DNA from: Ferruginibacter sp.
Lineage (GTDB): Bacteria; Bacteroidota; Bacteroidia; Chitinophagales; Chitinophagaceae
Assembly: GCA_039920245.1 (NCBI GenBank)
Contig: JBDSEE010000120.1
Coordinates: forward strand, 27,036 to 91,035
Direction of reading: 5' to 3'
DNA length: 64,000 nucleotides
Shown: in pieces, positions 36,183 to 39,806 of the stretch
Layout: the number at the start of each line of letters is the position of its first letter
Position numbering within the stretch: position 1 is the first letter of the stretch
The notes under the pieces: generated by a model
Told to the model about the DNA's origin: nothing
Database searches by the model: none
The model's input: only the letters and a program-made list of their open reading frames with translations
Position numbers and translations under genes: made by a program

Positions 36183-37460
36183 TTATTTCAACACGAAAAT
36201 TTCATTCCACCTGCTGGTATATCTTGGGCTGCGAAGTTCCTGCCGCATTTTCCAGTTTCGGGTAGTTCCTGAAGCTGCAAACTTTATAATGTCATCACGC
36301 ATGGCAAAATTCATATTGTCGATCATATCCATGAGGAGGCGATTACTGTTATGTAACTGCGGCGTAAATAAATTTGCCTGAATATTTTCATCTGGCACCA
36401 GCCCGCTAAGCATTACACCGGCTTTTTTATATATCCGTCCTTCTTCAAAAAGCTGTGCGGCCATTTGGGTAGCTGCCTTTATTAATACACTCGTATCGGA
36501 AGTTGCCATCGGAAGTATGCTGTATAAGCTTATGGTGGGGCCATGGCGAAAATGTTTTCCAGTACTTATTTCTTTGGGTACCACAAAGACATGAATAATA
36601 TTAGCAGCGCTTTGCTGTCGTCGCAATTTTTCTGCAGCCCGGGTAGTGTATGTTGCTACTGCTTCCTGAATATCCGAAAGCGTTTTGGCAGGCTTTCCAA
36701 ACATGCGGGTACTGGCGATCATTTTTTTGTTTACCAACTGATCCTGCAAATCAGTTGACGGTTCACTCTTGAGTTCCTTTAATAACCTCACTCCTGTTAC
36801 ACCACCAAGATTGGCCCGGGCCCAGGGCTCATTTTTTTTAACGAGATCAAAAGCTGTAAATACCGCAAACATTTCCACGAGTTTTTGTGCATACTGGCGA
36901 CCTATACCCCACACTTCGCCAATAGGAGTATGCTGTAATGCTTCCTGTATTTTTTCTTTTGTGTCAAGCACCACTACGCATTGTGTTTCCTGCTTATTTT
37001 TTTTTGCAAGATGATTGGCCACTTTGGAAAGCACCTTGGTAGGAGCTACACCAATGGACACTTTTATACCTGTCCACTGTTCAACCGTTTTTCTTATATG
37101 CATAGCGGTTGTATGAAAATCGTCGTTGTCACCAAGTTGGAGGAATGCTTCGTCAACGGAATAAACTTCTACCTTTTCAGCTCCAAGTATCATCCGCAGC
37201 GTTTCCATTACCCGCCAGCTCAGGTCGCCATAGAGATTATAGTTGGAAGAAAACGTAGCTACACCGAATTTTTCTATTAGGGGCCGGGCCATAAAATATG
37301 GACCAGCCATTGCCACGCCGAGTTGTTTTGCTTCATCGCTTCGGGATATGATGCAGCCATCATTATTGCTAAGCACTACCACCGGCTTATTATCCAGGTC
37401 CGGGCGAAATAGTCTCTCGCAGGAGCAGTAAAAGCTATTGCAATCTATTATGGCTATCAT
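36183..37460 (-). CDS. umuC: Y-family DNA polymerase V catalytic subunit (UmuC-like, C-terminal DUF4113)
   Basis: IDCNSFYCSCE, VVLSNNDGC, YSVDEAF and WKMRQELRSPRYTS. Confidence 0.93.
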   Translation of the reverse strand: MIAIIDCNSFYCSCERLFRPDLDNKPVVVLSNNDGCIISRSDEAKQLGVAMAGPYFMARPLIEKFGVATFSSNYNLYGDLSWRVMETLRMILGAEKVEVYSVDEAFLQLGDNDDFHTTAMHIRKTVEQWTGIKVSIGVAPTKVLSKVANHLAKKNKQETQCVVVLDTKEKIQEALQHTPIGEVWGIGRQYAQKLVEMFAVFTAFDLVKKNEPWARANLGGVTGVRLLKELKSEPSTDLQDQLVNKKMIASTRMFGKPAKTLSDIQEAVATYTTRAAEKLRRQQSAANIIHVFVVPKEISTGKHFRHGPTISLYSILPMATSDTSVLIKAATQMAAQLFEEGRIYKKAGVMLSGLVPDENIQANLFTPQLHNSNRLLMDMIDNMNFAMRDDIIKFAASGTTRNWKMRQELRSPRYTSRWNEIFVLK

Positions 37461-37494: not shown

Positions 37495-37926
37495 CTAAAC
37501 CTGCTTTATTACATAAGTTACTACACCCCAGATCTTGAAATCATTAAATTCCGTGATGCTTATCGGCGATAGCCGTGGGGTTTCAGGTATCAAAGTAAGA
37601 CTGTTCATCGTTTTGTGGTAGCGGCGAATGAGCATCTCCCCATCAATGATAGCAATTACGATCTTGCCGTTTTGTGGTTTTATACTCCGGTCCACAATTA
37701 CAATATCGCCGTCGCTAATGCCGGCACCCACCATACTTTCGCCGCTTACCCGCATGAAAAAAGTAGCGGGCTTATTGGCTATTAATTGCTCATTCAGGTC
37801 AATACCCCGTTCCATATAATCATCTGCTGCTGCCCCAAAGCCGGTTGCGTTTGCATGGGGTACATCATGTTGGGTAAATCGTTTTGATCCACCATAGCTA
37901 CTGCCGAAAAAATTTTCCACCTCCAT
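37495..37926 (-). CDS. umuD: UmuD-like S24 family protein, catalytic Lys replaced by Arg
   Basis: DDYMERGIDLN, ATFFMRVSGESM, GDIVIVDRS and WGVVTY; directly upstream of umuC. Confidence 0.85.
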   Translation of the reverse strand: MEVENFFGSSYGGSKRFTQHDVPHANATGFGAAADDYMERGIDLNEQLIANKPATFFMRVSGESMVGAGISDGDIVIVDRSIKPQNGKIVIAIIDGEMLIRRYHKTMNSLTLIPETPRLSPISITEFNDFKIWGVVTYVIKQV

Positions 37927-37947
37927 AAAAAAAGAATTTGTACAAAA

Positions 37948-37983
37948 CTAAATAATTTAGTAATTTTATGCTAAATAATTTTG
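37948..37983. promoter_or_regulatory. Two tandem SOS-like operators (CTAA-N5-TTAG)
   Basis: CTAAATAATTTAG (37948-37960) and CTAAATAATTTTG (37971-37983), between divergent repair genes. Confidence 0.7.
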
Positions 37984-38069
37984 CATTATTTTATTAACAG
38001 CCCGTGTTTAACCGTACCTGCCATACTTAAGTTGTACAGTCTTTGTTTGAATGCTGTAAAAAAACCTTT

Positions 38070-38681
38070 ATGAAAAACAATACAATCATTCCGGGTTATA
38101 AAACATATGAGTACCTGCTTGTGTTAAATCCGCACGAAGAACTCCGTAATAAGATCATGCAGGTGAAAGAACAGTTTGCAAAGGATTTTCAAACCAGTTT
38201 TGCTGTACACAGTAAGCCACATATTGCGCTGGCTACATTTACACAATACGGCATGATAGAAGAAAGAATTATTAACCGCCTGCATGCAATCGCAATGGGA
38301 TTTCCGCCTATTAAAATTGAGTTGAAAGATTATGGCAGTTTTCCTACACACACTATTTTTATTAATGTATCATCAAAACTTACCGTCACAAACCTTGTGA
38401 AACAAATACGCACCTATGCACAGCGCCTGATGAAACTGGACGCAGACAACAAACCACATTTTCTGCTGGATCCTTTTATACCAATTGGCCGCAAACTTTT
38501 GCCATGGCAATATGAAAAGGCATGGCTGGAATATAGCCACAAACACTTCACGGGTAGATTTATAGCCGATGGAATGTTATTATTAAAAAGGCCGTCAGGA
38601 GAGTTGAATTACCAGATAGTGCAGCGATTTGAATTTCAAAACCTGCCGGTGAATACTGTACAAGCAAGTTTGTTCACTTAA
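38070..38681 (+). CDS. 2H phosphoesterase / 2'-5' RNA ligase-like protein with degenerate motifs
   Basis: YEYLLVL, KPHIALATF and GSFPTHTIFINV. Start reassigned to ATG 38070. Confidence 0.75.
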   Translation: MKNNTIIPGYKTYEYLLVLNPHEELRNKIMQVKEQFAKDFQTSFAVHSKPHIALATFTQYGMIEERIINRLHAIAMGFPPIKIELKDYGSFPTHTIFINVSSKLTVTNLVKQIRTYAQRLMKLDADNKPHFLLDPFIPIGRKLLPWQYEKAWLEYSHKHFTGRFIADGMLLLKRPSGELNYQIVQRFEFQNLPVNTVQASLFT

Positions 38682-38696
38682 AATCTACAGAAAAAA

Positions 38697-39806
38697 ATGC
38701 CAGAGAAGTTGAAACAGGATGCTGTGCCTGTAAGCACAAACACACAGCCGGAAACAGCACAATACCTGCAGGGAAGAGGTGCACAATTCAATACTAAAAA
38801 CAAGTTTATTAAAAATGAAATTGTAAAAGAACATATTGAATCTATTGATGATTGGGAAGAAGTGAATAGCCGCACTCAATATATTGAGATGGAATCAAAA
38901 ACCATAGTTAATAAGGTGGAGAGCCCGGATGTGGGAATGAGCTATAGTATGAATCCTTATGCAGGTTGCGAGCATGGTTGCATTTATTGTTATGCCCGAA
39001 ACGTACATGAATACTGGGGCTATAGTGCAGGTCTTGATTTTGAAAGAAAAATTTTGATTAAGAAAAATGCGCCGCAATTGTTGCGCAAGTTTTTGATGCA
39101 TCCTAAATGGATATGTGCGCCCATAATGCTAAGCGGTAATACAGATTGTTATCAGCCTGCAGAACAGCAATATCGTCTTACAAGAGGTCTGCTGGAAGTG
39201 TGCAATGAGTTTAACCAGCCGGTAGGAATACTTACCAAAAATTCATGGATTTTAAAGGACAAAGATGTGTTGCAGGAGATGGCCCGGAAAAATATTGTAT
39301 CGGCAATGGTAAGTATAACTTCTTTTAATGAAGACTTACGCAGAACTATGGAGCCGAGAACCACAACTGCCAGGCAAAAACTGAAAGTGATAGAAGAGCT
39401 GAGTAAAGCTGGCGTAAGAATGGGTGTTATGATGGGGCCAATGATCCCAGGTCTGAATGAACACGAAATGCAACGGATAATGAAAGCAGCCGCAGAAGCT
39501 GGTGCAACTTTTACTGCATATACTTTTATTAGGTTAAACGGGACGATAAAATTTTTATTCCAGGACTGGCTGTATAAAAATTTTCCTAACCAGGCTGATA
39601 AAGTATGGCATCTTATAGAGCAGAGTCATGATGGTAAAGTGAATGATAGCCGCTGGGGTGTGCGTATGCGTGGCGAAGGAAGCATTGCGCAGATGGTGGC
39701 ACAACAGTATAAAAAATATGGTAAGATATATAACATGAATGCTGAACGGTGGGACCTGGATTGTACAAAATTTAGAAGACCGGGTGGGCAGGGTAAACTG
39801 TTTTAG
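38697..39806 (+). CDS. PA0069-family (SplB-like) radical SAM protein
   Basis: NPYAGCEHGCIYCYAR CxxxCxxC motif, SGNTDCYQ and C-terminal QGKLF. Confidence 0.93.
   Translation: MPEKLKQDAVPVSTNTQPETAQYLQGRGAQFNTKNKFIKNEIVKEHIESIDDWEEVNSRTQYIEMESKTIVNKVESPDVGMSYSMNPYAGCEHGCIYCYARNVHEYWGYSAGLDFERKILIKKNAPQLLRKFLMHPKWICAPIMLSGNTDCYQPAEQQYRLTRGLLEVCNEFNQPVGILTKNSWILKDKDVLQEMARKNIVSAMVSITSFNEDLRRTMEPRTTTARQKLKVIEELSKAGVRMGVMMGPMIPGLNEHEMQRIMKAAAEAGATFTAYTFIRLNGTIKFLFQDWLYKNFPNQADKVWHLIEQSHDGKVNDSRWGVRMRGEGSIAQMVAQQYKKYGKIYNMNAERWDLDCTKFRRPGGQGKLF

Follow-up and report, generated by a model that had tools for sequence, protein, structure and literature searches.

The gene discussed here lies at positions 37495-37926, on the minus strand, of the window, which is the whole stretch of 64,000 nucleotides of Ferruginibacter sp. 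DNA that was analysed. It encodes a UmuD homologue of 143 aa (P0001) that matches Pfam Peptidase_S24 (PF00717; E 7e-26) and, at 141.8 bits, exceeds the 110-bit cut-off of the NCBIfam model for the [quoted passage not shown] (NF007621). Comparison with the PDB by HMMER retrieves E. coli UmuD/UmuD' (1umu, 8gmt, 1i4v, and 1ay9) at E values of about 1e-24 to 1e-25, with UmuD' at 5e-25. On the same strand and 34 nt 3' of umuD lies umuC (36183-37460), which encodes a Y-family polymerase of 425 aa with the Pfam domains IMS, IMS_C, DUF4113, and IMS_HHH, and in which the motifs DCNSFY, SVDEAF, and QANLF (clamp-type) can be read directly. This gene looks intact, and in most relatives, too, a umuC follows umuD in the same orientation. 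The protein therefore has the S24 fold and the umuC operon expected of the UmuD family; the Lys general base is absent, its position being occupied by Arg101, and the Ser and the Thr-Gly site can be read either way.

In many related loci an extra gene is lodged between umuD and umuC. The inserts, identified by eye from their motifs as HUH-type transposases, are of two kinds, RAYT-like ORFs of ~197 aa (YFHIYNRGVNGE...LLKNHFHLLV) and Y1 transposases of the IS200/IS605 type (~145-156 aa; HVHCLISL), and they occur at L034 1177-1878, L042 3516-4109, L073 3569-4159, L093 3501-4100, and L112 3540-4139, as well as at L046 3566-4036 and L082 2850-3284. No transposase gene separates the two genes here, where the gap is 34 nt.

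The region 5' of umuD carries a perfect CTAA-N5-TTAG palindrome (CTAAATAATTTAG; 37948-37960), 34 nt from the umuD start, which is the sole perfect match within the 64-kb window. A second box with one mismatch (CTAAATAATTTTG; 37971-37983) lies 23 bp from the first, a spacing common to many relatives and to the region before the LexA-like gene of the same genome. The proximal box is overlapped by TAGTTTTG (37943-37950, minus strand), a candidate umuD promoter element, as it fits TAnnTTTG, the Bacteroidetes -7 promoter consensus. Nearly all related loci have a CTAA-N5-TTAG box at most 200 nt upstream of umuD, most often at ~30 nt. According to Sanchez-Osuna et al. (2021; PMC8565304), this motif is the operator of the non-canonical, CI-like LexA of Bacteroidetes and is found upstream of umuDC, recA, splB, and other genes, with splB belonging to the core of the regulon. 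In the window, a divergent operon on the plus strand (38043-39806) uses the same control region and consists, by Pfam, of a 2H-phosphoesterase-like gene (38043-38681) and a SplB-like radical SAM gene (38697-39806); a single perfect SOS box lies between this operon and umuD.

A search of the genome for another S24 protein, proposed in the initial annotation, returned only one further S24 gene and no canonical UmuD, the assembly being 95.5% complete. The product is an HTH-S24 protein of 250 aa whose motifs KAAAG, GDSM, and YKR constitute an intact Ala-Gly site and Ser/Lys dyad, and its gene (L002 1210-1962) is preceded, just 5' of the start, by two CTAA-N5-TTAG boxes 23 bp apart (L002 1167-1202). 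An ssb-like gene (146 aa, ending in DDDLPF; L002 2031-2471) follows directly 3' of it. Because the umuD operator, the LexA-like gene with its own boxes, and the intact site and dyad are all present, the transcriptional SOS circuit looks complete, and umuDC looks like a member of the non-canonical LexA regulon, with a predicted operator and a cognate HTH-S24 repressor.

The HMMER alignment to the solved structures of E. coli UmuD pairs T28-G29 with C24-G25, S64 (GESM) with the nucleophile S60 (GDSM), and R101 (MLIRRY) with the general base K97 (FTVKKL). The corresponding codons, read on the minus strand, are ACC (37843-37845) and GGC (37840-37842) for T28 and G29, AGT (37735-37737) for Ser64, and CGC (37624-37626) for Arg101. 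The initial annotation had placed the Arg 37 residues after Ser64 and the Thr-Gly pair 35 residues before it, and the alignment bears out both positions, the latter spacing being 35/36 residues. It had also argued that CGC, at least two changes away from a Lys codon, is no single-base error. The codon is indeed two changes from AAA or AAG, and a sequencing error or a private allele is ruled out as the source of Arg101, since this residue is present in 121 of 121 sequences of at least 78% identity (the query and its best 120 database homologues, which are 78-92% identical). G29 and S64 are likewise found in all 121, and position 28 is occupied by Thr (112 sequences) or Ser (9 sequences).

The fixation of Arg extends well beyond these close homologues, as had been suggested for examination in the family. 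Arg occupies the position equivalent to 101 in all ~95 Chitinophagaceae loci. Every copy carries it in 17 of the 21 genomes sampled from this family, as well as in 80 named loci of species-representative genomes, including Ferruginibacter, Lacibacter, Terrimonas, Puia, Niastella, Chitinophaga, and many Chitinophagaceae MAGs. Across this clade all six Arg codons are in use at position 101, and the four Thr codons and the four Gly codons are each represented at positions 28 and 29, respectively. Such turnover of synonymous codons without a change of residue indicates that Arg101, T28, and G29 have been held by selection over a long time. Canonical UmuDs from other Bacteroidota families read S/A-A-G-F-P-S-P-A ... 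G-x-S-M ... V-K-R.

The history of the nucleophile position is less simple. Outside the Ferruginibacter-like subclade, members of the Chitinophagaceae clade read G-D-A-M, with Ala at the nucleophile, so that the majority of the clade are natural double substitutions equivalent to S60A and K97R, and one nested member (L064) has Asn. All 10 sampled loci from Balneolaceae (Balneola and Gracilimonas; the family was named by exact look-up) also combine T-G with Ala and Arg. In the IQ-TREE phylogeny the Chitinophagaceae clade has support of 100/99 and the Balneolaceae are its sister at 97/87, a placement flagged as the join of two long branches; the clade is also monophyletic in another tree (SH-aLRT 99). 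Fitch parsimony requires one K-to-R change on the tree and places Ala at 64 both at the common node of Chitinophagaceae and Balneolaceae and at the base of Chitinophagaceae, the ancestral combination being T-G/Ala/Arg. Ser is reconstructed as derived in the subclade of the UmuD studied here and, separately, in two single rows, which amounts to at least three Ala-to-Ser gains.

The codons at position 64 agree with this reconstruction. Among 39 sampled canonical UmuDs the Ser codon is TCN in 34 and AGY in 5, the Ala members of the clade use GCN, and 34 of its 35 Ser members use AGC or AGT. TCN cannot become AGY without a non-Ser intermediate, which is the classical "two serines" argument of Brenner. 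Passing from TCN to GCN takes one step, and from GCN to AGY two, via Thr or Gly. From the AGY codon and the Ala placed at the ancestral node by parsimony, Ser64 was most likely gained secondarily, the ancestor of the lineage having lacked both catalytic residues. A Ser is present at the S60 position, but the word "retained", used for it in the initial annotation, is misleading, and the codon and tree analyses led us to reject, as the default reading, a half-active enzyme that has kept its nucleophile. Furthermore, three clade members (P0147, P0165, and P0186) have a destroyed cleavage site and still carry the Ser, which shows that Ser does not track a cleavable site.

Two segments precede the C-domain, namely the N-terminal arm (residues 1-24, MEVENFFGSSYGGSKRFTQHDVPH; 37855-37926, minus strand) and the former cleavage-site region (residues 25-37, ANATGFGAAADDY; 37816-37854, minus strand), in which T28-G29 occupies 37840-37845. 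Among 61 clade members, Y11, G13, and Q19 of the arm are invariant and K15 is nearly so. No segment of the protein is more conserved than the ANATGFGAAADDY region, whose mean column entropy is 0.21 bits compared with 0.90 in the C-domain. Pairwise dN/dS is about 0.09-0.11 for the whole of umuD, about 0.2 for the arm, and about 0.02-0.03 for residues 25-37; because dS is saturated (about 1.5-2), these ratios are rough and are read only as lying well below 1. The gene is under purifying selection, which is strongest in the former cleavage-site region, and a pseudogene or a decaying gene is ruled out by these ratios together with the residues fixed through synonymous codon turnover. The Thr-Gly pair was at first counted as a sign against cleavage, an argument that had to be given up since two homologues whose Ser/Lys dyad is intact (P0230 and P0220) have Thr-Gly as well. 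The pair is therefore not diagnostic, and in principle the bond may be cleavable; L026 reads SATGFPSPA, in an ambiguous register.

An AF2 model of the monomer, computed from an alignment of 61 clade sequences, gives the C-domain a pLDDT of 80-92, and the best PDB folds for this domain are UmuD' (1umu) and UmuD (8gmt), followed by weaker matches to 2fjr and 4n31. Residues 1-50 are left unplaced (pLDDT <55), so that docking of the arm in the cleft draws no structural support from this model, which is of the monomer only. In E. coli UmuD, Y52, residue 54, F94, D91, and E93 form the pocket for RecA L2 and an acidic patch (PMC9926225). The equivalent residues here are F56, M58, M98, D95, and E97; the character of these positions is kept, and contact with RecA* is therefore still plausible.

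Taken together, these observations favour, with somewhat better than even confidence, a full-length, non-proteolytic accessory subunit of Pol V that is controlled through transcription. The protein would be a pseudo-protease belonging to a distinct Pol V (umuDC) lineage. Its S24 fold, N-terminal arm, and dimer-type C-domain have been kept, but Ser-Lys autoproteolysis would no longer remove the arm, and the full-length form would be the working one. The damage signal would enter via transcription, with the CI-like LexA acting on the CTAA-N5-TTAG operator, which overlaps the putative umuD promoter, and leaving it upon its own RecA*-stimulated self-cleavage; direct contact of RecA* with the UmuD2C complex probably adds to the induction. 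The former cleavage-site strand ANATGFGAAADDY may serve as a binding element, docked like a pseudo-substrate in the inactive cleft of the other protomer, on RecA or UmuC, or both, and such a role would account for its being under the strongest constraint in the protein.

In E. coli, S60A abolishes UmuD cleavage (PMC3901139) and K97A, the standard cleavage-dead form, was used to block it for cryo-EM (PMC9926225). RecA*-stimulated autoproteolysis to UmuD' is predicted to be absent from the protein studied here. The proposal of the initial annotation that it probably cannot self-cleave is strengthened by an Arg that is clade-wide and under selection and by the loss of the Ser nucleophile in most relatives, and its suggestion of control by transcription only gains support from the perfect non-canonical-LexA box 34 nt 5' of umuD. 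An active full-length form would call for compensating changes, because uncleavable UmuD fails in mutagenesis in E. coli. It also counts against the favoured reading that Ser64 seems to be held, since AGC and AGT alternate without a change of residue and all 121 close homologues have it, and that a cleavage site still in use would be expected to show the same extreme conservation as T-G and the residues around it.

Some Chitinophagaceae genomes contain a canonical umuD with A-G, Ser, and Lys (L155, from genome G347 of the same genus; L154, L156, L157, and L113/L153). In four of the five genomes examined (G347, G267, G043, and G315) it occurs beside the dyad-less operon, and in G159 instead of it. 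In three genomes the canonical umuD is followed by a umuC ~40% identical to the present one (L156 ends at a contig end), and in three of the genomes examined it has its own CTAA-N5-TTAG box. The canonical and the dyad-less umuDC are two paralogous Pol V lineages.

Other arrangements were encountered among the relatives. The Balneolaceae UmuDs (L129, L130, and L133-L140) read E-T-G-F-P/V-S-P-A ... G-N-A-M ... I-R-R, with a more canonical FPSPA strand, and no CTAA-N5-TTAG box was found upstream of their umuD genes. The Balneolaceae lineage is reported to use a canonical LexA. Eight proteins of 250-285 aa (P0127, P0134, P0136, P0137, P0140, P0150, P0156, and P0159) are tandem double UmuD-like S24 proteins, in which the first domain has an AGFPSPA site and a degenerate dyad (often Ala/Arg) and the second has Ser/Lys and no site; their architecture resembles a UmuD dimer joined covalently from a "substrate half plus enzyme half". 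In the canonical-type loci of family f5 (L020-L023, L025, L027-L029, and L032) umuC precedes umuD, so that the usual gene order is inverted.

The constraint on the cleavage-site region is also the main argument for a different explanation, namely that the arm is removed at Thr28-Gly29 in trans by another protease, with UmuD acting as a substrate only, since G29 is invariant and T28 has been kept through all four of its codons. Cleavage of E. coli UmuD is intermolecular (PMC9926225, citing McDonald et al. 1998), some Chitinophagaceae genomes, one of the same genus, have a second, canonical umuDC operon, and the LexA-like S24 protein encoded in the present genome has its dyad intact. Possible proteases are therefore this non-canonical LexA, which is the obvious one, a canonical UmuD paralogue where present, or a housekeeping protease. 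However, the genome (95.5% complete) has no canonical UmuD, which leaves reliance on such a paralogue in the same cell unsupported for this organism, and the LexA-like site VKAAAGY is little like ANATGFGAAADDY. In addition, LexA and CI-type repressors cleave themselves intramolecularly; trans cleavage by them was reportedly obtained by Kim and Little in 1993, in vitro only. An arm with invariant residues and under purifying selection is not expected of a discarded peptide either, an argument tempered by the fact that the arm of E. coli UmuD is functional too. We regard cleavage in trans as unlikely, though worth keeping in mind.

A more doubtful possibility is that UmuD works as a brake or manager only, like the full-length UmuD2 of E. 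coli, holding UmuC, or else DinB or the replisome, in a checkpoint state that is not mutagenic, or that the operon is decaying. The additional canonical umuDC of several genomes could supply the mutagenic activity that such a brake would withhold. Here, however, the operon is the sole umuDC of the genome, so that a polymerase brake that is never released seems wasteful, and control by an SOS box fits better with an induced, active function. Decay is excluded by strong purifying selection and by a umuC that is co-linear and intact across two families.

It is improbable, in our estimate, that the Ser-bearing, Ferruginibacter-like subclade has kept or regained a weak self-cleavage in which Ser64 attacks Thr28-Gly29 under RecA* stimulation, with Arg101 or another group as the base. 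The fixation of Ser64 in 121 of 121 sequences through alternating AGC and AGT looks selected, and Thr-Gly is compatible with intact dyads elsewhere; moreover, Lin and Little are said to have found in 1989 that autodigestion of LexA persists in the K156R mutant when the pH is very high. At physiological pH, however, Arg is a poor general base, and the Ala of the sister lineages and the Asn of L064 indicate that the position tolerates non-nucleophiles. The three proteins that keep Ser despite a destroyed site point the same way, and at least three Ala-to-Ser gains are what a near-neutral exchange of small residues would produce.

Less probable still, and put forward as speculation, is that the Ferruginibacter-like subclade has re-evolved processing at the old site, either through the Ser64-Arg101 pair or through the side chain at position 28, where Thr, Ser, and Asn occur, all of which can self-cleave the backbone via an N-O acyl shift or succinimide formation. 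If true, autoproteolysis would have been regained by catalytic means that are not known from family S24.

In the textbook view, SOS mutagenesis is switched on post-translationally when RecA* triggers the self-cleavage of UmuD, and for this reason pipelines name umuD genes "autoproteolytic subunit". Public records apply this name to the proteins of the clade as well, for which the residues of the clade offer no support. Literature searches on Bacteroidota and Balneolota found no published account of a UmuD that lacks the dyad. In a clade that is rich in species and comprises two families, Chitinophagaceae and Balneolaceae, umuDC has long been maintained by selection although the catalytic dyad is missing, which suggests that Pol V-type polymerases can run without the cleavage switch. 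The clade is therefore a natural system in which to ask what cleavage is for, be it the unmasking of a surface, timing, or the control of degradation, and what role an uncleaved but conserved "cleavage-site" strand has. Moreover, the switch between TCN and AGY serines offers a clean case of a catalytic position that has passed via a non-catalytic state.

Among known systems, the closest is E. coli UmuD/UmuD' (S24; 1umu, 1ay9, 1i4v, and 8gmt), with which the protein shares ~43% identity over residues 28-142, the same fold, a place in the umuC operon, SOS-type control, and an arm followed by a G-F-x-x-x-A-x-D-Y strand. The E. coli protein differs by having K97 where Arg is found here, Cys instead of Thr at P1, FPSPA instead of FGAAA, and S60, whereas the ancestor of the clade had no Ser; the arm described here is unrelated in sequence, yet conserved within the clade. 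The laboratory non-cleavable forms of UmuD, S60A and K97A, hit the same two positions as the natural substitutions do. These mutants are defective in mutagenesis (PMC3901139), in contrast to the natural dyad-less clade, whose purifying selection beside an intact umuC implies a working protein.

With regard to its control, the locus resembles the non-canonical Bacteroidetes LexA regulon described by Sanchez-Osuna et al. (2021; PMC8565304), as the same operator is found upstream of umuDC, splB, and the repressor gene, and the repressor is of the same type (HTH_XRE plus S24, Ala-Gly, Ser/Lys). In the passages of that paper that were searched, UmuD homologues serve as markers for motif discovery, and the dyad is discussed for the repressors and not for UmuD. 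YolD/YqjX, the proposed Gram-positive analogues of UmuD (PMC6511836), are likewise small non-proteolytic partners of a UmuC-like polymerase under SOS control; they belong to an unrelated family, whereas the protein described here is a true UmuD homologue. Finally, in other naturally non-cleaving S24 proteins, such as coliphage 186 CI and the SipA-type homologues of signal peptidase, the S24/S26 fold has likewise been kept for binding or dimerisation after loss of the dyad, with the difference that these proteins are repressors or pilus-assembly factors and the one found here is a polymerase subunit.
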